Part shown: in pieces, positions 6,888 through 47,195 of the stretch
Layout: each line of letters begins with the position of its first letter
Position numbering within the stretch: position 1 is the stretch's first letter
Assembly: GCA_903833055.1 (NCBI GenBank)
Contig: CAILDU010000143.1
Span: 1-53,725 of the forward strand
DNA from: an uncultured Verrucomicrobia subdivision 3 bacterium
GTDB lineage: Bacteria; Verrucomicrobiota; Verrucomicrobiia; Limisphaerales; UBA11358
Length of the DNA stretch: 53,725 nucleotides
Direction of reading: 5' to 3'
Notes under the pieces: generated by a model
The model's database searches: none
The model's input: the letters and a program-made list of their open reading frames with translations, nothing else
What the model was told of the DNA's origin: nothing
Program-made: the position numbers and the translations under genes

Positions 6888-7826
6888 TTAAAAGTATCCT
6901 GCTTTCTTCCGGTCTTCCATCGCGGCTTCGGAAGCTTTGTCGTCAGCGCGAGTGCCGCGTTCCGTGACGCGCGCGGCGGCGACCTCGGCGATGATGTCAT
7001 CAATCGTGTCCGTCTTCGATTCAATCATGCCGGTGCTGATCATGTCGGCGATGGTGCGGACGCGGACAATCATTTTTTTAATCGGCTCGTTCTGCTTGGG
7101 GCGTGCACCGGCAAATGGATCGGACTTGGTTGAATCAGTATGCGGAGGCGGCACGGGCAACCACTGTCCACCGCGCCAAAAACAATCGCGCTCGTGGCTG
7201 AAATAAAGATTCGGCACTTCGAGTTTTTCTTTTTTGATGTATTCCCAAACGTCCATCTCCGTCCAGTTCGAGAGCGGAAACACGCGCATATTTTCGCCCG
7301 GATTTAACTTGGCGTTGTAAAGATTCCAGATTTCCGGGCGCTGATTTTTCGGATCCCACTGGCCGAACGAATCGCGGAAGCTGAAGAAACGTTCCTTCGC
7401 ACGGGCCTTTTCCTCGTCGCGGCGCGCGCCGCCGATGGCGCAATCGAATTGAAATTCCTCAATCGCGCCGAGCAGCACGGGAATTTGCAGCTTGTTGCGG
7501 CTGATTTCGCCGGGTGCGGGATGCGCGTGACCTTTGGCGATGGCTTCATCCACGGTGCGGACAATCAGCTTCGCGCCAAGCTCCTTCGCGCGACGATCAC
7601 GGAACTCAAGCAGTTCGGGAAATTCATGGCCGGTCTCGACGTTCAGAAACGGCATCGGAATATCGGACGGACGGAACGCCTTTTCCGCGAGGCGCAGCAA
7701 GCAGATGGAATCCTTGCCGCCGGAAAACAGCAAGGCGGGGCGTTCAAATTCGGCGGCGACTTCACGCATGATGTGAATCGCCTCGGTTTCCAGATACTGC
7801 AAATGATCCAAGTGATAGCTGCTCAT
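6888..7826 (-). CDS. cysD: sulfate adenylyltransferase subunit 2
   Basis: LFSGGKDS PP-loop motif, CysD length and C-terminal basic tail. Lies in an operon with cysN and cysH. Confidence 0.9.
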   Translation of the reverse strand: MSSYHLDHLQYLETEAIHIMREVAAEFERPALLFSGGKDSICLLRLAEKAFRPSDIPMPFLNVETGHEFPELLEFRDRRAKELGAKLIVRTVDEAIAKGHAHPAPGEISRNKLQIPVLLGAIEEFQFDCAIGGARRDEEKARAKERFFSFRDSFGQWDPKNQRPEIWNLYNAKLNPGENMRVFPLSNWTEMDVWEYIKKEKLEVPNLYFSHERDCFWRGGQWLPVPPPHTDSTKSDPFAGARPKQNEPIKKMIVRVRTIADMISTGMIESKTDTIDDIIAEVAAARVTERGTRADDKASEAAMEDRKKAGYF

Positions 7827-7844
7827 TTTGACACGGTAATTTTA

Positions 7845-8282
7845 GACACGGATTTCACGGATTAGCACGGATTTTTACAAAATAACTCTTTTCCACTCCA
7901 GTGAATCACCACCGAAGTTGACCAGCAAACCAACGTGCAACTTCGATGCGGCCAGATAATTCAAGACCTGCTTGACGTGCGGGTCAGCCAGTCGTTCGAC
8001 GGCTTTTGCCTCGAATAGAATTTTTCCTTCGACCACAAAATCAGCAAAATAAAAATGCGGTAGGATGACATCCTTGTATTTCACTTCAAATTTCTGTTCG
8101 CGTGCAAACGGAACATTCGCGCGACTTAATTCCACCACAAGTGCATCTTTGTATAGGACTTCATCGTGTCCTTTGCCCAGTTCGCGATGAATCTCCATGC
8201 AAAGCCCGATCAAACGGTGCGTGTCTTCGCGATAGAGAATTTCAGACATAAATAATCCGTGAAAATCCGTGCAATCCGTGTC
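7845..8282. mobile_element. cassette A: 438-bp TIR-bounded, TA-flanked element carrying one GxxExxY gene
   Basis: Left arm 7845-7874 is GACACGGATTTCACGGATTAGCACGGATTT. The reverse complement of 8253-8282 is GACACGGATTGCACGGATTTTCACGGATTA, identical in 26 of 30 positions. Each arm has three CACGGAT units with mirrored 9/10-bp spacing. TA lies at 7843-7844 and 8283-8284. Confidence 0.7.
7875..8249 (-). CDS. GxxExxY family protein (PD-(D/E)XK-like fold)
   Basis: The 124-aa core MSEILYRE...HRELGKGHDEVLYKDAL...DFVVEGKILFEAK...LVNFG matches the TIGR04256 GxxExxY pattern. The ORF-track start at 8327 runs into the repeat arm, so I prefer the ATG at 8249. Confidence 0.8.
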   Translation of the reverse strand: MSEILYREDTHRLIGLCMEIHRELGKGHDEVLYKDALVVELSRANVPFAREQKFEVKYKDVILPHFYFADFVVEGKILFEAKAVERLADPHVKQVLNYLAASKLHVGLLVNFGGDSLEWKRVIL

Positions 8283-8944
8283 TAGTTTTTCACGGCTTTG
8301 CCGCCCCAGCTTGCGTGCAAACCGCATTCGCGCTTTTCATCCGCCTTGGCCGGATCAAAATAATCCCACTCGTTGGGCAGGTTGTGCTGTTTCAGATAAT
8401 TTTCCATGTCCGCGTCGCTCCAGTAAAAGAGCGGGCTGACTTTCAGTGAATTGAAATTCTTGTCCTCGCTCACGATGTCGAGTTCCGCGCGATTCGGATT
8501 TTGCACTTTCCGCAACGCGGTGAGCCAGACGGTTGGCGCAAGTTCCTTCATGCCGCGCTGGAACGGTTCGAGTTTCATCGCGGTGCTGAAGGCTTTGATG
8601 CGCGCTTCATTTTCCGGCGTCGGTTCCGGCATGCCGCCGAACGCGGCGTCGTAATGCGCGGCGGTCATCTTCGGGATGTAAGCCTTGATGTTAAGCTTGA
8701 GCAATTTTTTAACTTCTTCGGCGTGCTTGTAAGTCGCGGGACGATTGTAACCGTGGTCAACCCACAGCACCGGAATGTCCGGCTGAACTTGTGTGACCAA
8801 GTGAAGAATCACCGCTTCGTAAGGCCGATAATTCGTCGAGACAATCGCGCGGCCATTCGCCTGCGCGATGGCCCACTTTACGATTTCCAGCGGCGATTTA
8901 GAACGCAACTCGGCGTTGGTTTGAGCAATTTGTTCAGAAGTCAT
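8282..8944 (-). CDS. cysH: phosphoadenosine phosphosulfate (PAPS/APS) reductase family protein
   Basis: PP-loop-type fold and C-terminal ECGLH motif, located between cysI and cysD. Its TAG stop is formed at the junction with cassette A. Confidence 0.8.
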   Translation of the reverse strand: MTSEQIAQTNAELRSKSPLEIVKWAIAQANGRAIVSTNYRPYEAVILHLVTQVQPDIPVLWVDHGYNRPATYKHAEEVKKLLKLNIKAYIPKMTAAHYDAAFGGMPEPTPENEARIKAFSTAMKLEPFQRGMKELAPTVWLTALRKVQNPNRAELDIVSEDKNFNSLKVSPLFYWSDADMENYLKQHNLPNEWDYFDPAKADEKRECGLHASWGGKAVKN

Positions 8945-15436: not shown

Positions 15437-15611
15437 GCGGCCAAGCTAAACGATGCCGACACCGTTGGCAAATGGGGAAAAACATTCTTGACCGTTGATT
15501 CTCGCGGATTGACGCGGATAATTTTCCGGCGCACACTCGCCGCTGTCCGAAAATAAAATACAAACAACGATTATTATTTAATTAACAATTTTGCGTAGCT
15601 ACGGCTACGGG

Positions 15612-15726
15612 CTGCACCGAAAACCTGGAAATTTTCAAGCCCGCACACAGCAACCGACCGAGCGCGCCCAAATGGGCGCGGCTTGGCGTGCTTGCTGTGT
15701 AGGCGCTTCCAGGTGCCTCGGTGCAG
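15612..15726 (+). ncRNA. GC-rich rod-like hairpin (about 115 nt), candidate structured RNA or leader upstream of the methyltransferase
   Basis: Nested complementary segments: CTGCACCGA/TCGGTGCAG (15612-20 with 15718-26), CCTGGAA/TTCCAGG (15624-30 with 15707-13), ACACAGCAA/TTGCTGTGT (15645-53 with 15692-700), and CGCGCCC-AAAT-GGGCGCG (15663-80). An AT-rich stretch precedes it and a T-run follows at 15748-56. Strand is assumed from the downstream genes. Confidence 0.45.
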
Positions 15727-15791
15727 GGTGCGTTAAGTCCGCGCCTCTTCTTTTTTAGAATTCCCGTTTCCGCCCGCTCGCAGCGGAAACC

Positions 15792-16778
15792 ATGGCAACT
15801 AAAAGTTCAAATTCATTTTTGCAAAAGGCAAAGTCCGCAAAAAAGGATGAGTTTTACACGCAACTTTCTGACATTGAGAAGGAACTAAAAAATTACAAAG
15901 CGCATTTGAAAGGCAAAGTCGTCTTGTGCAATTGCGACGACCCGCGCGTCAGCAATTTTTTCCACTATTTCTCTTACAAATTTAAGCAGTTAGGGTTGAA
16001 GAAGCTCATCGCAACCTGCTACAAAAATCAGTGTGCTGACCTCTTCAGTCAAAACGATTCAGAAAAGGCGATCTACTTGGAATATAATGGTGACAAAAAT
16101 GGAAACAACATTCCCGACTCCGAAGAAATCGGCATTAAGCAATTAAAAGGCGATGGCGATTTTCGCAGTGCTGAATGTGTTGAGCTATTGAAGAGGGCAG
16201 ACCTCGTCGTGACCAATCCACCGTTCTCCCTATTCCGGGAATATGTTGCCCAACTCGTCGAACATGATAAGAAATTCATTATCATCGGCCACCAGAATGC
16301 GATTACCTACAAAGAGATCTTCAAGCTGATTAAGGAAAATAAACTATGGTTGGGATATGGCTTCAACCGTAATTGCGCGCACTTCATAAACCGGCATTAC
16401 GTTGATTATGCATCAGACGCCGACCACAGGGAAGGAATGATAAGAGTTTCAGGCGTTCAATGGTTCACAAATATGGACACCACGAAACGCCACGAAGAAT
16501 TAATTTTATACAAAAAATATCATCCTAACGAATATCCAAAATACGACAATTACGATGCAATCGAAGTTAGCAAGACGACGAATATTCCGATGGATTATGC
16601 CGGCCCTATGGGCGTTCCCATTACGTTCCTTAACAAATATAATCCCGACCAATTTGACATCTTGGGAAATCTTGGTTCGTATGCGCCTGATGGCTATTCC
16701 TTGATTGGGGCAATTTTCATCAACAAAAAGAAGATTTATAAACGCATCCTTATAAAAAATAAAAAACCTTTGGTATGA
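15792..16778 (+). CDS. adenine-specific DNA methyltransferase, EcoRI-methylase-like family
   Basis: DEFYTQ N-terminal motif, VTNPPF catalytic motif (NPPF), 328 aa, AT-rich codon usage. Confidence 0.75.
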   Translation: MATKSSNSFLQKAKSAKKDEFYTQLSDIEKELKNYKAHLKGKVVLCNCDDPRVSNFFHYFSYKFKQLGLKKLIATCYKNQCADLFSQNDSEKAIYLEYNGDKNGNNIPDSEEIGIKQLKGDGDFRSAECVELLKRADLVVTNPPFSLFREYVAQLVEHDKKFIIIGHQNAITYKEIFKLIKENKLWLGYGFNRNCAHFINRHYVDYASDADHREGMIRVSGVQWFTNMDTTKRHEELILYKKYHPNEYPKYDNYDAIEVSKTTNIPMDYAGPMGVPITFLNKYNPDQFDILGNLGSYAPDGYSLIGAIFINKKKIYKRILIKNKKPLV

Positions 16779-17881
16779 ATATTGAACTGAAAAGAATAAC
16801 CGTTGGCGAATTGGCGGATGGCTATGAAGACAACGCGGAAGGTGGCGTTGTTGCGTTCGGCGGCAAGCTGGACGTGCGGCCGCCGTATCAGCGGGAGTTC
16901 ATCTACAAGGACAAGCAGCGCGATGCCGTCATCAACACCGTCACCAAAGGTTTTCCGCTGAACGTGATGTATTGGGCGGTGCGTGCGGACGGCGGCTTTG
17001 AGGTGATTGACGGGCAGCAGCGCACTATTTCCGTTTGCCAGTATGTGACGGGCGTTTTTTCGTTTCAAAACTTGTATATCCACAATCTGCCAGACGACGT
17101 GCGGGAAAAAATTCTCGGCTACAAGCTCATGATTTATCAATGCACCGGCACGGACAGCGAGAGGCTTGATTGGTTCAGAACGATCAACATTGCAGGAGTA
17201 AAACTATCAGACCAGGAATTGCGGAACGCCGTCTATGCCGGCTCGTGGGTTTCCGACGCGAAACGATATTTCAGCAAAACAGGCTGTGCCGCATATCAAA
17301 TCGGACAAGATTATCTCGATGCTGAACTAAATCGTCAGGGATATTTGGAGACCGCTATTGATTGGATTTCGGAAGCATATGGGAACGCGGACATCATCGA
17401 GAAATACATGGGCAAGCATCAGCACGCTAAAGACGCCAAGAAGCTTTGGGAGTATTATCAAGCGGTGATTGATTGGGTGGGTGAAACATTTACCAAGAAG
17501 CGAAGCAAAATAATGAAGGGCGTTCCGTGGGGTGTTCTCTACAATAAATTTAAGGACGAAAAGTTTGACCCGAAGAAAATCGAGGCAGAGACGGTGAAGT
17601 TGATTGACGATGACGAAGTGACAAATCAAAAAGGAATTTACCGATACATTTTGACGCGCGACGAAAAATATCTCTCGCTCCGCACGTTCAACGATAAGGA
17701 GAAGCAAAAGGCTTACGAAAAACAAAAAGGCATCTGCCCGAAATGCCCGAAGTCAAAGCATTGGGAGCTTGAAGAAATGGAAGCCGACCACATTACGCCG
17801 TGGCACGCAGGCGGGAAAACCATGCTGGATAATTGCCAGATGCTTTGCAAAGACCACAACCGGAGAAAGTCAGGGAAGTAA
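16775..17881 (+). CDS. DUF262 (ParB/Srx-like NTPase) - HNH endonuclease fusion protein
   Basis: The N-terminal RPPYQREFIY...IDGQQR motif is typical of DUF262. The C-terminus CPKC...EADHITPWHAGGKTMLDNCQMLCKDHN is a canonical HNH. An ATGA overlap couples it to the methyltransferase. Confidence 0.8.
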   Translation: MNIELKRITVGELADGYEDNAEGGVVAFGGKLDVRPPYQREFIYKDKQRDAVINTVTKGFPLNVMYWAVRADGGFEVIDGQQRTISVCQYVTGVFSFQNLYIHNLPDDVREKILGYKLMIYQCTGTDSERLDWFRTINIAGVKLSDQELRNAVYAGSWVSDAKRYFSKTGCAAYQIGQDYLDAELNRQGYLETAIDWISEAYGNADIIEKYMGKHQHAKDAKKLWEYYQAVIDWVGETFTKKRSKIMKGVPWGVLYNKFKDEKFDPKKIEAETVKLIDDDEVTNQKGIYRYILTRDEKYLSLRTFNDKEKQKAYEKQKGICPKCPKSKHWELEEMEADHITPWHAGGKTMLDNCQMLCKDHNRRKSGK

Positions 17882-17889
17882 TCCGTGTT

Positions 17890-19278
17890 TCATCCGTGTG
17901 CATCTGTGGTATTCCGTTTTTCTGAAAATTGTTTCCGCCAGTTTTCGAGGCGCTCCTTGATTTTCTTTTCCACGCCTTGTTCCGTCGGCTCGTAATAAGT
18001 TTTGTCCACGCCCAGATAATCTTGCGCGACGAAATGGTCCTTGCCGTCGTGCGCGTATTCGTAGCCTTTGCCGTGGCCGAGCCGTTCCGCACCCTTGTAA
18101 CTTTTATCGCGCAAATGTTCCGGCACGGCCAGCGTGCGACCGGAACGCACGTCTTCCAGTGCGGCGTCAATCGCCATGTAAGCGGAATTACTTTTGTTTG
18201 CCGTGGCGATGTAAATCGTCGCTTCGGCCAATGGAATCCGCGCTTCCGGCCAGCCGACAAATTCCGACGCGGCGAGGCACGCGTTCGCCAAAACCAAAGC
18301 CATCGGGTCGGCGAGGCCGACATCTTCCGCCGCGCAAATCACGATGCGCCGCGCGATGAAGCGCGGGTCTTCGCCGGCGTGAATCATCTTGGCGAGCCAG
18401 TAAAGCGCGGCGTCGGGATCGCTGCCGCGCATGGATTTGATGAACGCGGAAATGGTGTCGTAATGCGCGTCGCCATCACCGTCATAAACCACGGCCTTTT
18501 TCTGGATGCTCTGCGCGGCGACTTCCAGCGTGATTCGGACAACGCCATCAGTATCTGGTGAAGTTGTCAGCGCGGCGATTTCGAGCGAGTTGAGCGCCTT
18601 GCGCGCGTCGCCGTCGGCGATTTTGGCAAGATGGCGCAAGGCGTTTTCATCGGCGGAAATTTTCAGATAGCCGAGACCGCGTTCCTCGTCTTTCAACGCG
18701 CGTTGCAGCAATGAAAATAAATCTTCTTCCGTCAGCGGGCGCAGTTCGAAGATTTGCGAGCGCGAGACGAGCGGCGAATTGACGAAGAAAAACGGATTGT
18801 GCGTCGTCGCGCCGATGAGCTTGATGACGCCGCTCTCGACATCCGGCAGCAAAACATCCTGCTGTGATTTGTTGAAGCGGTGGATTTCGTCAATGAAGAG
18901 AATTGTGGATGCGCCAGTGTTTTCAAGGCGATTGGCCGCTGCTGACAAAACGCGCCGCATATCGGCGACGTTGGATTCCACGCCGCTCAATCTTTCAAAT
19001 TTTGATTTGGTCTGCCGCGCGATGATTTGCGCGAGCGAGGTTTTTCCCGTGCCGGGCGGCCCGTAAAAAATCAGCGACTGGATTCTATCTGCTTCAATGG
19101 CGCGGCGCAAAAGTTGGCCGCGGCCGAGGATGTGGGTTTGCCCAGCATACTCATTTAAGTTGCGCGGGCGCATCCGCGCGGCGAGCGGCTGGCTGCGAAA
19201 GTTATTTTCGGCGGCGGACACAATTTCTTCTTCCGGCAATGCTTTTGCCGGTTGGGAAAATAGTTCGTCGCGCGCCAT
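17890..19278 (-). CDS. rarA: replication-associated recombination protein A (AAA+)
   Basis: GPPGTGKTS Walker A, IDEIHRF box and MgsA C-terminal domain. The last codons and the stop lie inside the right repeat arm of cassette C. Confidence 0.9.
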   Translation of the reverse strand: MARDELFSQPAKALPEEEIVSAAENNFRSQPLAARMRPRNLNEYAGQTHILGRGQLLRRAIEADRIQSLIFYGPPGTGKTSLAQIIARQTKSKFERLSGVESNVADMRRVLSAAANRLENTGASTILFIDEIHRFNKSQQDVLLPDVESGVIKLIGATTHNPFFFVNSPLVSRSQIFELRPLTEEDLFSLLQRALKDEERGLGYLKISADENALRHLAKIADGDARKALNSLEIAALTTSPDTDGVVRITLEVAAQSIQKKAVVYDGDGDAHYDTISAFIKSMRGSDPDAALYWLAKMIHAGEDPRFIARRIVICAAEDVGLADPMALVLANACLAASEFVGWPEARIPLAEATIYIATANKSNSAYMAIDAALEDVRSGRTLAVPEHLRDKSYKGAERLGHGKGYEYAHDGKDHFVAQDYLGVDKTYYEPTEQGVEKKIKERLENWRKQFSEKRNTTDAHG

Positions 19279-32030: not shown

Positions 32031-34352
32031 ATGAGTTCAGGACATGGACATCGGCACGAAGAACCGGCGGCAATTTGTCTGGCGCGCTGCGTCGCTGATA
32101 CATTTTCCGAGGAGCCGATGCTGGAAGCGGTGACGATTGATACTGTGCAAAAGAAAATTTCCGTCGCTACGCTCGGTCGCGCCGACGTGGAAAAACTCAC
32201 ACAAAAAATTTCTGCTAAAATTTCGTCCGCACAAAATTCCGCTGCCAGCGAAACCTGTTCTTTATTTTCCGGCAAAAATAATTGCGCCGTGTGCGACTCG
32301 CCATTGTCTGCGAACGAACAAAAACTTATCACCATCCACCGCGACGCCACGGCTACGACCATCGCGCGCGTCACCTGTCCGACCGCACCGAAGTTCTGGC
32401 GCTGGCGCGATATTCCGTTTCCCAAAATTGCGCCGCGCGAAATGGAAATCCACGACGACGACCACCACATTGACGAATGGAAAGGCCAGCTCGTCCTCGC
32501 CATCGCGTGTGGCGTGGCCGGATTGACGGCTTACTTTTTCGGCAAAGCCGATCAACCGGGAATCGCCATTATTAGCTACGCCATTGCTTATCTCGCGGGC
32601 GCATTTTTCGCCGCCGAAGAAGTTTTGGAGCGTCTACACAAACGCATATTGGACGTGCATTTTCTCATGCTTGCCGTTGCGTTTGGCGCGGCCACCATCG
32701 GTGCGTGGGCGGAAGGCGCGACGCTGCTATTTCTGTTTTCCTTTTCCGGCGCACTGGAGCATTACGCCTTTGGCCGCACGCAGAAGGAAATCCGCTCGCT
32801 CTTCCGCGATGCGCCGAAAACCGCCACGCTCATTGACGCGAATGGAAACGAAACAGAAATTCCCGTTGAAAACATTTCCAAAGGCGTGCGTTTGCTCATC
32901 AAGCCCGGCGCGCAATTTCCCGTGGACGCGGAAATCGCCAAGGGAAACACCGCTGCGGATGAATCCAATCTCACCGGTGAAGCTGCGCCCGTCGAAAAAA
33001 TCATTGGCGACACCGCGCTCGCTGGCACTTTGAATCTTTGGGGCGCGGTTGAAGTCATCGTCCTGCGACCGGCGGCGGAAAGCTCGCTGCAAAAAATCAT
33101 CACGCTCATCCGCGAGGCGCAGCATCAGAAAGCGCCCGCGCAAATGTTTGCCGACAAGTTCAGCACCTTTTACACTTACGGCGCGCTCGGCCTGTCGCTC
33201 GCGATGTTTTTTGTGTGGCGGTTTGTTTTGAATTATCCGGCGTTCACTTCCACCGCCGAAGTTCACAGCGCATTTTATCGCACGATGACGCTGCTCGTCG
33301 TGTCATCGCCGTGCGCGCTCGTGCTGTCCATCCCGTCCGCCGTGCTGGCGGCAATCGCGTGGGCGGCGCGGCATGGAATTTTATTTCGCGGCGGCGCAGC
33401 GGTGGAAAAACTGGCCGAAATCAACGTCGTCGCGCTCGACAAAACCGGCACGCTCACGACTGGCGAACTGCGCGTGGAACAGGTGGAAAGTTTTCCGCCC
33501 GGACGCGAAAATGAAATCGCGCAGCTTGCGTATTCGCTGGAAAAATTGTCCACGCATCCGCTCGCCCGCGCCATCACGCGCCACGGCAAACAGCAGAATC
33601 TCGCGACGCACGAATTCTCGCAGTTTGAATCCGTCACCGGCCAAGGCTTGAAAGCGAAGCGCGATGGCAAAGAAGTTTTTTTGGGCAAACGCGAATGGGT
33701 GGAGACGCAAATGGCGCGCGGTGAATTTGCCGCGCCGCAATCCGGCGTGGGCACGTCCGAAGTCTGGATTGCCAGCGACGGTTTGATTGGCCGCGTTGTG
33801 TTGCGCGACGACATCCGTCCGCAGTCGGCGGAGGTGATGGCGCAATTGCGCGCACGCGGGCTGCATATTGTTGTGCTGACCGGCGATCGCGAAGCTGCCG
33901 CTGAACATTTGCGAACGGAATTAAAACTCGACGACGTGCGCGCCGAGTTGAAGCCGGAACAAAAAGTCGCGGCAATTCAGGAATTTTCCGCTGCCGGAAA
34001 AAAGGTGGCGATGATTGGCGACGGCGTGAATGACGCGCCGAGTTTGGCCGTCGCGCATATCGGCGTGGCAATGGGCGCGCGCGGGGCGGACGCCGCGTTG
34101 GAGCAGGCCGACGTGGTGCTGATGAACGACAAGCTGGAAAATTTTCTCGCTGCGTTCCGTTTGAGCCATCGCGCGCGGAGCATTATCCGGCAGAATCTTT
34201 TTATCTCGCTCGGCACGGTCGTCGTGCTGGTGACGTTCGCGTTGTTCGGCAAAATCCCGCTGACCCTCGGCGTGGTCGGCCACGAAGGCAGCACGGTCAT
34301 CGTCGTGATGAACAGCCTGCGGCTGCTATTCGGGGGTGGGAAAAAACTTTAG
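32031..34352 (+). CDS. heavy-metal translocating P1B-type ATPase (SPC motif)
   Basis: DKTGTLT phosphorylation site, SPC in the transmembrane metal site, GDGVNDAP hinge and a His-rich N-terminus (GHGHRHEE). Confidence 0.9.
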   Translation: MSSGHGHRHEEPAAICLARCVADTFSEEPMLEAVTIDTVQKKISVATLGRADVEKLTQKISAKISSAQNSAASETCSLFSGKNNCAVCDSPLSANEQKLITIHRDATATTIARVTCPTAPKFWRWRDIPFPKIAPREMEIHDDDHHIDEWKGQLVLAIACGVAGLTAYFFGKADQPGIAIISYAIAYLAGAFFAAEEVLERLHKRILDVHFLMLAVAFGAATIGAWAEGATLLFLFSFSGALEHYAFGRTQKEIRSLFRDAPKTATLIDANGNETEIPVENISKGVRLLIKPGAQFPVDAEIAKGNTAADESNLTGEAAPVEKIIGDTALAGTLNLWGAVEVIVLRPAAESSLQKIITLIREAQHQKAPAQMFADKFSTFYTYGALGLSLAMFFVWRFVLNYPAFTSTAEVHSAFYRTMTLLVVSSPCALVLSIPSAVLAAIAWAARHGILFRGGAAVEKLAEINVVALDKTGTLTTGELRVEQVESFPPGRENEIAQLAYSLEKLSTHPLARAITRHGKQQNLATHEFSQFESVTGQGLKAKRDGKEVFLGKREWVETQMARGEFAAPQSGVGTSEVWIASDGLIGRVVLRDDIRPQSAEVMAQLRARGLHIVVLTGDREAAAEHLRTELKLDDVRAELKPEQKVAAIQEFSAAGKKVAMIGDGVNDAPSLAVAHIGVAMGARGADAALEQADVVLMNDKLENFLAAFRLSHRARSIIRQNLFISLGTVVVLVTFALFGKIPLTLGVVGHEGSTVIVVMNSLRLLFGGGKKL

Positions 34353-35594
34353 CCACAGATTTCCACAGATGAAACACAGATGGGGAAACGCCAAGACATT
34401 AAGTCGCCGACCAGAATTCAATTTGCTATTAAACGGTTTAGTTCGCCGTAAGTCTTACCTCGGTGTTTTTCAATAAAAGTTGCTAAAACGCGCCAATAAT
34501 TTCTTTTACGATACTTGGTAAGTGTATTGCATAACCAAGTAATGCAGCCCCTACTATCACAAGTTGTTTATGTTTATTAAACACTTTATGCCTCGCAATA
34601 GAATAGGCGGGTCGTTTAATTGCGCCCCATAATGTTGAATGAATGGAAAGCAGCCCTGCTAGAGTGAGTAGCAGGACAACCAAAAACAACCACGCCACTC
34701 CATAAAATCCCAAGAAACAAATTACATAGTCAAAATGAGAGTGTGCTACGAATCCATATAAAACTCGCCCCGTGCTATCAGTGTTTTTGTAAAGACTGCT
34801 ACTCATTGTATAGACAATAAATCCTATAACCATTAAGGCTAAAATTATCCCCTTACTTTTGTTATTAGATTTTTTGCCTATGAATACAGTTTCAACAACA
34901 TTACGAAATATAGGTGGAAACTGAATAATTGCTATCAATGCAAATACAAGAGGGGGCGCATTGATAAACAAATAATCAATCATAGTCATATCGGGATATA
35001 CGTCAGGGCTGATTTTTGAAAAATAAAACGTATCTGTTACTATTTGACATAAGAAAACAAGGATGGAAACCGTAGCAGTAATTAACCACAGCCGTTTACT
35101 TTGCTGATATGTCTTTAGAAGCGGTGATAGTAACAATGCGAGAAATGAGACAGCGAAACTGAATTGGCTAACATTGTGTAATAGGAAATAGTCCAAAGTT
35201 AGTCCCCTGCTCGCAAAATATATTGTGCAGATAGACACCATGGAACTTATTGTAAGAAAAGATAAGCAGCAGTTAGAAACCAGATTTTGTTTAGTCCATA
35301 CCTTATCACCAAAGATTTTAGTTATCCCTAAATTAGCAGCCAGTCCTAGTTTCTGAATAATTGTGACATGGCCACGAATAGCTTTTTCACTCTTTTCATC
35401 TAGAAATCGCCAAAGCTCATCTAACTTATTATGTATAGTATTTTCCTCATTTTCATAAAGGAAAAGACCGCAATACACAAATACCGCACCGGCCATTCCA
35501 GCCAAGCAATGAGAATCAAAAACAAGCCAGTCCATATTTTTGTTTTACTGGATAGGCTTGCCGAATCTGTGTTTCATCTGTGGAAATCTGTGGC
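34352..35594. mobile_element. cassette D: 1243-bp element with perfect 30-bp terminal inverted repeats and TA/TA flanks, carrying one AT-rich membrane-protein gene
   Basis: 34352-34381 GCCACAGATTTCCACAGATGAAACACAGAT is identical (30 of 30) to the reverse complement of 35565-35594. Each arm has three CACAGAT units, spaced 10/11 bp and mirrored. TA lies at 34350-51 and 35595-96. Confidence 0.8.
34483..35535 (-). CDS. orphan polytopic membrane protein (about 8-9 predicted TM helices)
   Basis: 350-aa ORF, strongly AT-rich, with multiple long hydrophobic segments. I recognise no family motif. Confidence 0.6.
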   Translation of the reverse strand: MDWLVFDSHCLAGMAGAVFVYCGLFLYENEENTIHNKLDELWRFLDEKSEKAIRGHVTIIQKLGLAANLGITKIFGDKVWTKQNLVSNCCLSFLTISSMVSICTIYFASRGLTLDYFLLHNVSQFSFAVSFLALLLSPLLKTYQQSKRLWLITATVSILVFLCQIVTDTFYFSKISPDVYPDMTMIDYLFINAPPLVFALIAIIQFPPIFRNVVETVFIGKKSNNKSKGIILALMVIGFIVYTMSSSLYKNTDSTGRVLYGFVAHSHFDYVICFLGFYGVAWLFLVVLLLTLAGLLSIHSTLWGAIKRPAYSIARHKVFNKHKQLVIVGAALLGYAIHLPSIVKEIIGAF

Positions 35595-36604
35595 TAGGAC
35601 TTGGGCGGCGCGGTGCTTTTGCGTTCCACAAATTCGGCGGCGAGGCGTTTCAACTGGATTTTTTCGCCGCGAATCAGCTTCATCATTGTTTCCATCGCCG
35701 TTACGCCGAGCCGGTATTTCGGCTGGCTGACGGTGGTGAGTGGCACGCGATAATGTTCCGCCGTCAAAATATTGCCAAAGCCGACGATGGAAATGTCGCC
35801 GGGAATTTTGATGCCCTGTTGCAATAAAGTTTCCGCGCAGCCGATGGCCACAAGGTCGCTCACGGCCATGATGGCGGTCGGCTCGACGCCTTCGTTGAGC
35901 ATCTGCAACGCGGCTTTCGTGCCGTCTTCAATGGTGTTGCCGGATTGAAAAACCAGTTTGTCGTCCACCTCGATGTTCGCTTCGCGCAGCGCGCGGCGGA
36001 AACCCTCGAAGCGTTCGTGCGCCCACGGCGCGGCGGGCGGGCCGGTGAGATAGGCAATTTTTTTATGGCCGAGCGCGATGAGATGTTTCGTGGCGTTGTA
36101 GCTGGCGACGAGTTCCTCGATTTCGATGGCGGGAAAATTTTTACAAAACGGCGCGGGCGAACCGAGCAAAATGGTCGGCGTATTGCGTGCAATAATTTCC
36201 TGATAAATCCGCGCTTCGGCTTCGAAGCGATAAACGGGAACAATAAAAAGTCCATCCACGCGGCGCGAAAGCAGTCGGCGCAGGCAGGCGTCCTCGCGTT
36301 CGGGTTTGTTGTAAGTGTGGCAGAGCAGTAGGTCGTAACCGAGTTCGTGGGCGCGTTCCTCGATGGCAAAAACGATGCGCGCGTAAATGGGATTCGTCGT
36401 GGACGGAATGACGAGGCCAAACAGTTTGGTGGTCTTGGTGCGGAGACCTTGCGCGCTGGAATCGGGAACGTAACCCATGTCCGCCGCGAGTTTTTTGATC
36501 TTGGCTTTGGTGGCGGCGGAGACATCCGGCTCGTCGCGCAAGGCTTTCGAGACGGTCATCACGGAGACGCCGACGATTTGGGCAATGTCTTTTAAGCGAA
36601 CCAT
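35594..36604 (-). CDS. LacI-family transcriptional regulator
   Basis: N-terminal HTH MVRLKDIAQIVGVSVMTVSKALR followed by a periplasmic-binding-protein-like sugar-binding domain. Confidence 0.9.
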   Translation of the reverse strand: MVRLKDIAQIVGVSVMTVSKALRDEPDVSAATKAKIKKLAADMGYVPDSSAQGLRTKTTKLFGLVIPSTTNPIYARIVFAIEERAHELGYDLLLCHTYNKPEREDACLRRLLSRRVDGLFIVPVYRFEAEARIYQEIIARNTPTILLGSPAPFCKNFPAIEIEELVASYNATKHLIALGHKKIAYLTGPPAAPWAHERFEGFRRALREANIEVDDKLVFQSGNTIEDGTKAALQMLNEGVEPTAIMAVSDLVAIGCAETLLQQGIKIPGDISIVGFGNILTAEHYRVPLTTVSQPKYRLGVTAMETMMKLIRGEKIQLKRLAAEFVERKSTAPPKS

Positions 36605-46899: not shown

Positions 46900-47034
46900 G
46901 TCCCGCCAAATTGCGCCATGAACCTGCGAAAGTAAAGTGGCTTGCGCGCAAGTTTCGGTTGTCCTGTTCAACCGCGAAATACACGAACCACGCGAACATG
47001 AAGCAATGTTCCAAGGGAACATTTGAAAATAGCC

Positions 47035-47173
47035 CGGCATTTTAATGCCGGGTTGAACCCGCAAAGATTTTAAGTCCCGCAGGGACGGCTGACGTTTCCG
47101 GTCGTTCCTGCGGGACTTTATCTTTTCACCGCGCACCCGGCGTTGAAACGCCGGGCTATTTTCATTTTGTCTC
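47035..47173. repeat. nested-hairpin REP/MITE-like element (139 nt)
   Basis: The outer inverted repeat is GAAAATAGCCCGGC (47035-48) with GCCGGGCTATTTTC (47160-73). Inside are three hairpins: CCCGGCAT-ttta-ATGCCGGG, AAGTCCCGCAGG...CCTGCGGGACTT (47082-93 with 47117-28), and CCCGGCG-ttgaaa-CGCCGGG. Confidence 0.7.
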
Positions 47174-47195
47174 TTCGAGACGTGGCGGTGCTGGT

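Follow-up and report, generated by a model that had tools for sequence, protein, structure and literature searches.

A hairpin repeat element with phased-heptamer arms has probably captured a foreign membrane-protein gene between convergent ATPase and LacI genes in an uncultured Verrucomicrobia bacterium

A 53,725-nt stretch of contig CAILDU010000143.1 (assembly GCA_903833055.1, an uncultured Verrucomicrobia subdivision 3 bacterium), referred to here in its entirety as the window, carries between a P-type ATPase gene and a convergent LacI-family regulator gene a low-GC segment bounded by inverted repeats, cassette D (34350–35596). A preliminary description had proposed that D moved recently into a TA shared by the stop codons of these two genes. 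Based on comparisons with the same junction in related genomes and with the wider repeat family to which its arms belong, we consider it probable that D is a resident hairpin element, of a family associated with GxxExxY nuclease genes, that captured a foreign open reading frame (ORF). The junction is organized as follows.

34350–34352, + strand: TAG stop codon closing the P-type ATPase gene (32031–34352); its G is base 1 of the arm.
34352–34381, + strand: ATPase-side arm, G followed by three phased heptamers (CCACAGAT ttc CACAGAT gaaa CACAGAT); arm profile score 44.7 bits.
34382–34482, no strand: putative backbone of a resident short element, about 100 nt, non-coding.
34446–34471, − strand: degraded second copy of the inner arm and junction (GAAAAACACCGAGGTAAGACTTACGG on the − strand), directly after the stop of the ORF.
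34483–35535, − strand: cargo ORF, 350 amino acids, about 8 transmembrane segments, GC content at third codon positions (GC3) 0.32.
35536–35564, − strand: LacI-side junction from the arm to the start of the ORF (TCGGCAAGCCTATCC...AAAAAT on the − strand).
35565–35594, − strand: LacI-side arm, an inverted copy of 34352–34381.
35594–35596, − strand: TAG stop codon (CTA on the + strand) of the LacI-family gene (35594–36604); its G is base 1 of the arm.

The 30-mer GCCACAGATTTCCACAGATGAAACACAGAT at 34352–34381 equals the reverse complement of 35565–35594 at 30 of 30 positions, with a TA outside each arm (34350–34351 and 35595–35596), and together with its flanks the inverted repeat extends over 39 nt at 92%. 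None of 100 dinucleotide-preserving shuffles of the window reproduced the arm pair, even with 3 mismatches allowed. The perfect arms and their TA flanks, as first described, are confirmed. The flanking genes were identified by the domains E1-E2_ATPase (6e-42) on one side and Peripla_BP_1 (3e-34) and LacI (1e-13) on the other. Between the arms the GC content falls to 0.36–0.37, versus approximately 0.54–0.58 outside, and the 350-aa ORF, the sole long ORF of the interior, has a GC3 of 0.32 versus 0.67–0.70 for the neighbouring genes; the cargo ORF is compositionally foreign. The AT-rich interior, the ORF with about eight transmembrane segments and the roughly 100 nt of non-coding DNA were thus correctly described, as was the lack of a transposase inside D, and any mobilisation would therefore have to occur in trans. 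A search of D against Rfam gave no match, and a scan of D for promoters and terminators detected nothing exceeding shuffled sequences and, in its simple form, no terminator-like T-run.

Scanning metagenomes with the LacI protein as query yielded 80 orthologous loci at 76%–97% identity, among which the junction occurs in the following states.

L138–L140: no element, 11-nt spacer (taa ATTTTTGTCGG tca) between the stops.
L152: no element, 4-nt spacer between the stops.
L163: arms only, 80 nt between the stops.
L169: arms only, 141 nt between the stops.
L145, L146 and L149: arms only, with a different downstream gene and no ATPase gene, 135–150 nt.
L147/L148: arms and a secreted BspA-type LRR_5 (leucine-rich repeat, LRR) protein of 260 aa (L147:4588–5370), 886 nt.
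L150: one arm and a 233-aa secreted protein, 835 nt.
Window (D): arms and the 350-aa ORF, 1243 nt.

D is therefore inserted DNA when compared with those close relatives (L138–L140 and L152) whose junction has no element. The preliminary description had predicted an empty site, CTTTAGGAC, in which both genes end on one shared TA; this sequence is absent from relatives at this junction, and the sites that do lack the element have spacers of 11 or 4 nt between separate stop codons. Its placement of the arms at the stop codons holds insofar as both arms abut TAG stops, with the G of the arm as third base of the codon, although the shared stop does not. At occupied sites the flanking genes mostly end likewise in a TAG abutting the arm, with TAA found at L149. 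All 15 contigs carrying the exact ORF, and all 9 carrying the exact LacI protein, have D at this one position, with no second genomic site among them. An apparent second insertion site, at L007, proved to be the same site with different gene calls, and the 11-nt spacer of L138 was rejected as a remnant of the backbone, since 480 of 5000 shuffles matched equally well.

The non-coding stretch behind the cargo ORF has a counterpart where no ORF is present. Positions 34382–34482 of D align to the entire stretch between the arms of the arms-only element in L146 (79% over 78 nt), the same backbone occurs in inverted orientation in L145 and L149, and within approximately 1.5 Mb of fetched loci it matches only this chromosomal site. 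The resident backbone is thus site-specific, and it is complete in D. On the LacI side, the first bases inside the arm (TCGGCAAG...) are common to L163, L169, L147 and L146, and the first ~15 nt of the junction (35536–35564) are homologous to the start of the backbone of L146, L147 and L163. The cargo of L147 occupies another position in the same backbone and lies on the other strand. By local alignment, a stretch of about 30 nt from the L146-type element (AAACACGGAT-TCGG..CAAGACTTCC) is present in D twice, once in the intact LacI-side arm and junction (35536–35575) and once as the degraded copy at 34446–34471, both aligning to L146 at about positions 22–51. The two occurrences lie on either side of the ORF block as an imperfect direct repeat.

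In a neighbour-joining tree of LacI, all members of the clade containing the window bear arms except L138/L140, which are nested within it as sister to the arm-bearing L141; the L163/L169 and L150/L154 clades likewise contain arms, and the outgroups have none. The tree indicates that the arm pair is ancestral, that empty sites arose by secondary loss, and that the ORFs were added in individual lineages; the simplest reading is that the element inserted once, long ago, and that these losses and additions came later. Moreover, the ATPase-side arm is identical between the window and L163 at 29 of 29 positions despite LacI genes only 83% identical, so that the arms are conserved or homogenised, and the perfect arms of D, standing beside a diverged direct repeat, do not date the event as recent. 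The earlier claim that perfect arms imply recent mobility is thus not supported, nor is the view that arms and ORF moved as a recent unit, against which stand the arms-only (L146, L145/L149) and other-ORF (L147, L150) states at the same site, the LacI tree, the direct repeat and the single site in 15 contigs.

The arms of D belong to a repeat family built on three CACRGAT heptamers at 10–11-nt spacing. The pattern CCACAGATNNNCACRGATGAAACACRGAT, which fits both the CACAGAT and the CACGGAT arm types, gave more than 120 stretches among the matches listed from species-representative genomes, which makes the arms part of a repeat family dispersed over many genomes, a point in favour of the initial interpretation. 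Nearly all of these stretches come from Verrucomicrobiota or Planctomycetota metagenome-assembled genomes (MAGs), and the few pattern-bearing MAGs labelled as other taxa may reflect contamination of bins; the same pattern also matches 11 IMG/VR contigs. An arm profile run over these loci returned 89 inverted pairs and 67 unpaired arms. Pairs mostly measure 67–200 nt, with a distinct class of approximately 450–520 nt, three at 800–980 nt, and D as the longest at 1243 nt. Most copies are thus arms-only hairpins, and whichever strand is folded the short forms are very stable (z −10 to −13, about −57 kcal/mol). Approximately 10% of the copies carry a nuclease gene of the GxxExxY (PDDEXK_3) type, and other cargos are rare, comprising a protein with an Mrr_cat nuclease domain (L092) and a 208-aa protein without a family match (L068). 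An 818-nt "pair" around a response regulator in L085 was discarded as a false pairing, its second arm scoring only 10.4 bits. Within the fetched loci (about 1 Mb), no transposase lies inside any of the 89 pairs, and no transposase, integrase or recombinase family was found beside 33 unpaired arms, the neighbours of which belong to ordinary Pfam families. Similarly, the ORFs scanned around the arms include no integrase family, a result obtained without a dedicated attC/IntI search, and we take the arms to be unlike attC core sites. The family is widespread in Verrucomicrobiota and Planctomycetota and apparently undescribed.

Its only recurrent gene encodes the ~130-aa GxxExxY nuclease of the PD-(D/E)XK type and starts in one arm. 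Every element of the ~460-nt class has an ORF of about 131–137 aa (TIGR04256, "GxxExxY protein", 2.9e-37; PF13366, PDDEXK_3, 3.2e-36), and its first codons, for MDTDETQI, lie within the arm (CAG ATG GAC ACA GAT GAA ACA CAG AT). One such element lies within the window:

7843–8284, − strand: GxxExxY element of 442 nt, CACGGAT arms (TAGACACGGATTTCACGGATTAGCACGGAT and its inverted copy), nuclease gene at 7878–8249.

The ORF at 7878–8249 scores 129.4 bits against TIGR04256 (curated cut-off 35; E 8.2e-38), and the arm encodes the residues immediately upstream of the conserved nuclease core. The element is wedged between a 312-aa ORF (6888–7826) and a 220-aa ORF (8282–8944) on the same strand, both of which we presume from their sequences to be sulfate-assimilation genes. 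It represents a candidate class of trans-acting partner. Inverted heptamer arms enclose each of the 13 GxxExxY genes that could be evaluated in the fetched loci, in two cases with other heptamers (CACAGAG/CGCAGAG in L085, AACAAAG in L071), and also one GxxExxY gene retrieved from IMG/VR irrespective of arms. Arms that co-vary with GxxExxY around every such gene examined, together with gene-less hairpin derivatives, lead to the hypothesis that the nuclease recognises the heptamers. GxxExxY/PDDEXK_3 is a very large family (at least 7994 clusters), given as "function unknown" in a survey of the PD-(D/E)XK superfamily (PMC3424549), and our full-text literature search returned no paper on the genomic setting of GxxExxY. 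A search for multi-site copies of the element carrying the GxxExxY protein P0175 yielded none; the exact protein is present on many contigs at a single site, within a conserved HIT-GxxExxY-PhoH-YbeY row.

Elements of the family also differ between orthologous sites elsewhere. At the site shared by L090 (1680–2138) and L094 (4458–4618), the former has CACAGAT arms around a GxxExxY gene and the latter the same arms around a nested palindrome of CGCAGAT heptamers; further pairs of gene-bearing (~460 nt) and arms-only (76–180 nt) elements are L087 versus L051/L077, and L054/L103.

Whether TA is a target duplication was examined across the family. Read outward from the heptamers, the consensus runs C (98%), G (97%), A (71%) and T (62%), followed by a T-run and an A-rich tract, so that the flank is a graded consensus aaaaTTTTAG|C rather than a strict TA, although TA is still the commonest flank. 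Among 54 pairs, the dinucleotide just outside the arm was the same on both sides in 13, versus 13.4 expected, with TA on both sides in 10 of 54, and a test for direct repeats of 2–8 nt at offsets 0–6 in these pairs found nothing above shuffled pairings. Two comparisons of occupied with empty sites between species place the element exactly at a stop/start overlap (L071 versus L160) and just past the T-run of a terminator (L067/L103 versus L054), and neither shows a clean TA duplication. The TA at D is palindromic and overlaps the stop codons, and its flanks are compatible with a TA duplication without demonstrating one, contrary to the initial claim. As a caution for annotation, perfect inverted ends with a palindromic TA flank are insufficient for calling recent transposition.

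We therefore read D as a captured gene and not as a freshly jumped transposon. A resident palindromic element, consisting of two inverted triple-heptamer arms and a backbone of about 100 nt, would have been present at the convergent LacI/ATPase stops before the related lineages diverged, and a foreign low-GC segment of approximately 1.1 kb would have been captured in the lineage of the window only, 4–15 nt inside the LacI-side arm, leaving the imperfect ~30-nt direct repeat around the insert. The comparisons themselves show the family and its structure, its link with GxxExxY, the series of states at the orthologous junction, arms that are ancestral and ORFs that are lineage-specific, the breakpoints, and arms better conserved than the adjoining coding DNA; from these we infer a mode of capture, a role for protein binding and a behaviour of the transcript. 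The phased heptamers would serve as sites for protein binding, with GxxExxY nucleases as the likeliest binders, and these nucleases would act in trans to spread the family or to maintain it. Foreign DNA would have entered where the extruded hairpin suffered a staggered break, and fill-in at that break during repair would explain the ~30-nt direct repeat; constraint or gene conversion would keep the two arms identical. In the transcript, the arms would pair around the ORF and thereby function in both directions as an insulator or as a site of processing; the ORF, co-oriented with LacI, could be reached by read-through from it. D itself is presumably not currently mobile. A more far-reaching version, which we put forward only tentatively and hold to be rather doubtful, is that triple-heptamer arms and GxxExxY nuclease together form an undescribed nuclease-based element with an architecture like that of REPIN-RAYT systems and an extruded hairpin that would offer foreign ORFs a docking site, to be captured and exchanged with neither an integrase nor a transposase taking part. 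This would account for a junction that has a membrane protein in one lineage, an LRR protein or a different secreted protein in its sisters, and in some of them nothing at all. One conserved hairpin holding different foreign ORFs in sister lineages is relevant to how a single foreign gene can gain a foothold between essential genes when no classical mobile machinery is at hand.

Several points weigh against the capture of an ORF by a resident, GxxExxY-associated element. Aligned with each other, the two copies of the ~30-nt direct repeat give about 15 matches, 3 mismatches and 5 gaps, and so imperfect a repeat could be over-read; the tree is a simple neighbour-joining tree of one gene from metagenome contigs, in which recombination could mislead. 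The closest relatives by LacI identity (L138–L140) are empty, which alone would fit a recent insertion. The sole GxxExxY element tested for multi-site copies is fixed at a single site, and that of the window has CACGGAT heptamers at 9–10 nt, versus CACAGAT at 10–11 nt in D. A 130-aa PD-(D/E)XK nuclease, moreover, is not known to transpose by itself.

Other explanations account for parts of these data. Near-identical arms with different interiors at orthologous sites (window, L147, L163 and L169), a contrast repeated elsewhere (L090 versus L094, L087 versus L051/L077), are what would be expected if the ORF had arrived already flanked by arms and had replaced the resident interior by homologous recombination or gene conversion within them, the arms acting as portable homology anchors. 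The strong conservation of the arms across genomes, their presence on IMG/VR contigs, and the spacer of the LacI-side arm in the window, which is TTC as in its other arm and TTT in the nearest relatives, are in line with such an exchange. However, D retains the complete resident backbone behind the ORF, where the degraded copy of the inner arm is direct and not inverted, the homologs of the cargo found so far lack arms, and 30 nt is short for RecA-dependent exchange; we consider this replacement unlikely. We view as still less likely the origin proposed at the outset, a non-autonomous mobile insertion cassette moved recently in trans by an IS630/Tc1-type transposase into a shared-stop TA that was duplicated. 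It draws on the 30/30 arms with TA on both sides, on the empty junctions of the closest relatives (L138–L140), on the arms being a dispersed repeat family, and on TA as its commonest flank (62%–71% per position), and D does have the terminal inverted repeats of a miniature inverted-repeat transposable element (MITE) or cassette of this type. Yet no cognate DDE transposase was found in the fetched loci (~1 Mb), either inside the 89 pairs or beside the 33 unpaired arms, the family gives no duplication signal, and the predicted empty site was not observed. D occupies one site only in 15 contigs, sister lineages have arms and backbone there without an ORF or with other ORFs, homologs of the cargo lack such arms, and a degraded copy of the inner arm lies behind the ORF.

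An improbable alternative, to which we give the least credence, is that the arms are host regulatory sites under host selection (such as terminators working in both directions, targets of RNase III, or phased sites bound by a regulatory or nucleoid protein) and that the ORF entered by illegitimate recombination at a permissive intergenic spot. Arms more conserved than the adjoining coding DNA, positions at gene ends and after terminators, stable and fixed residence, and very stable hairpins could all be understood in this way. Conversely, the elements are patchily present at orthologous sites, the same 29-nt pattern extends across phyla and viral contigs, arms are tightly tied to, and co-vary with, a nuclease gene beginning within them, and the coexistence of arms-only, gene-bearing and nested forms is what one typically sees in a repeat-element family; nor did the simple scan of D detect a terminator-like T-run.

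Among known systems, REPIN-RAYT, in which doublets of repetitive extragenic palindromic (REP) sequences accompany a single flanked Y1 transposase gene (for background on REPs, bacterial interspersed mosaic elements (BIMEs) and RAYTs, see PMC3733652), is the closest architecture, sharing a small nuclease-type gene between inverted short repeats, many gene-less intergenic doublets, strong hairpins, and long, largely vertical residence at fixed sites. It differs in both gene and repeat. The gene of the present family is a PD-(D/E)XK nuclease (TIGR04256/PF13366, GxxExxY), whereas that of REPIN-RAYT is an HUH Y1 (IS200-like) transposase, and the arm consists of three direct heptamers in 10–11-nt phase, whereas a REP is self-palindromic with a GTAG/CGTC tag; the outer flank is TTTTAG, with G in only 6% where a GTAG tag needs it. 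The repeat being no GTAG-tagged REP and the gene no HUH Y1, the family lacks both features that define REPIN-RAYT. To our knowledge, unrelated passenger ORFs, present in some family members, are not a reported feature of REPINs.

Correia repeat-enclosed elements (CREE/NEMIS) of Neisseria and other bacterial MITEs are 70–300 nt long, with inverted and often TA-flanked ends, lack an internal transposase and adjoin gene ends or overlap them; RNase III can cleave their hairpin transcripts, and inversion of the elements is possible (PMC2649163, PMC10969869, PMC2229807). Similarly, TA is the commonest flank here, stops abut the arms, the backbone of L145/L149 is inverted, and hairpins are strong. 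Unlike Correia elements, however, the family has phased-heptamer arms, a recurrent form with a nuclease gene, a 1-kb ORF in D, and no statistical support for TA duplication, and as the phylum differs and no relationship of sequence was seen or is to be expected, the comparison is functional only (PMC2649163). Mobile insertion cassettes combine inverted ends of insertion sequences (IS) or transposons (Tn) with passenger genes and no transposase (PMC4337579, PMC5444012, PMC6542083). D superficially resembles them in having inverted ends and a passenger without a transposase but differs in that no cognate transposase was found, only one site is occupied, and the ends and backbone predate the passenger. 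The ends of such cassettes match known IS or Tn elements whose transposase moves them. Repeat elements are also known to insert into one another (PMC10969869). Palindromic repeats can be insertion targets, REP/BIME units for IS elements and pneumococcal BOX, RUP and SPRITE elements for one another, and likewise the hairpin element at the D junction repeatedly received DNA (the ORFs of the window, L147 and L150, and what may be the start of an IS3-type OrfA in L141) and L094 has a nested palindrome. In the known cases the inserts are IS or repeats carrying their own transposition machinery, whereas those described here are lone ORFs without a recognisable mobility gene. By these analogies, D and its family may best be described as a MITE/REPIN-like element, in D with a captured passenger.

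The cargo protein was at first taken for an orphan, which is how it appears in word-indexed searches, where both the ORF alone and a 40-sequence profile retrieved only the ORF itself; an exhaustive HMMER search, however, identified 510 representatives with E-values up to 1e-3, of which 47 reach 1e-10 or lower. These remote homologs are mostly 320–370 aa long, the closest being 37% identical, and residues W42, G76, W303, R308 and Y311 are invariant in 40 aligned members, none of which has a Pfam match. The cargo is a divergent member of an uncharacterised family of membrane proteins of ~330–350 aa. An alignment-based AlphaFold (AF2) model, which replaced a single-sequence model with a predicted local distance difference test score (pLDDT) of 45, is an all-helical membrane structure (pLDDT 86; predicted template modelling score, pTM, 0.72), and Foldseek searches of PDB and BFVD with it returned nothing below E 0.05 (TM ≤ 0.22). 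Pfam, NCBIfam and PADLOC gave nothing for the cargo, its closest homologs or their operon neighbours, except for an N-terminal LRR domain fused to the cargo-type membrane domain in two homologs of about 680 aa (P0081 and P0141). The first impression of a protein without a recognised motif was therefore upheld by Pfam, NCBIfam and Foldseek, and the proposed abortive-infection or exclusion role gained nothing from PADLOC, Pfam, NCBIfam or structure; a defence role of the cargo is speculation. LRRs are encountered twice, perhaps by coincidence, in these fused homologs and in the separate BspA-type LRR_5 cargo of L147 at the same junction.

Cargo homologs reside in unrelated genomic contexts without heptamer arms, as found in L133–L137, and P0003 again lies in a low-GC island. 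An arm-like sequence beside P0003, GCCTCACGCAAAGGCGCAGAGAC, has no inverted partner; it directly follows the TAA of the upstream gene (L135). Downstream of the P0003 homolog, at L135:1679–2091, another repeat family (CCCGGGGGAGAGGGCCG..GTGAGGGCGG) forms inverted pairs with arms of up to 48 nt.

Further variation was observed at the LacI junction of close relatives. In L141 (4508–4650), the LacI-side arm is broken after the second heptamer by TGATTGGG..., followed by the start of an ORF, MKKTHHTTEQIIRILRE, at which the contig ends; this insert may resemble an IS3-family OrfA. The LacI frame of L142–L144 and L184, relatives at 95% identity, runs into an arm remnant (..AAGTTGGCCACAGATTCACACAAATTATAA), and the next 3.4 kb contain neither a second arm nor an ATPase gene, pointing to a rearrangement at the arm.

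The window contains one further family arm, which stands alone.

17881–17910, − strand: lone arm, TACCACAGATGCACACGGATGAAACACGGAT on the − strand, profile score 33.8 bits.

This arm ends a low-GC block (15497–17910) comprising an EcoRI-type adenine methyltransferase gene (15792–16778, 7.9e-132) and a GmrSD_N/HNH nuclease gene (16775–17881), and the stop codon of a convergent MgsA-like gene (17890–19278) lies inside it. A degenerate two-heptamer CGCGGAT motif at about 15503–15527 may mark the other end of the block. On an IMG/VR contig classed as viral (L226:4284–8530), several intergenic arms in the same orientation are spaced about 2 kb apart, and some adjoin a different repeat, CTTCGCG(N)CTTCGCGCGACCC. 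Finally, a 44-nt inverted repeat at 80% (..AAAATAGCCCGGCATTTTAATGCCGGGT..), each arm of which is hairpin-like, lies at 47010–47178 of the window; it is unrelated to the heptamer arms and is probably a pair of terminator-like palindromes.

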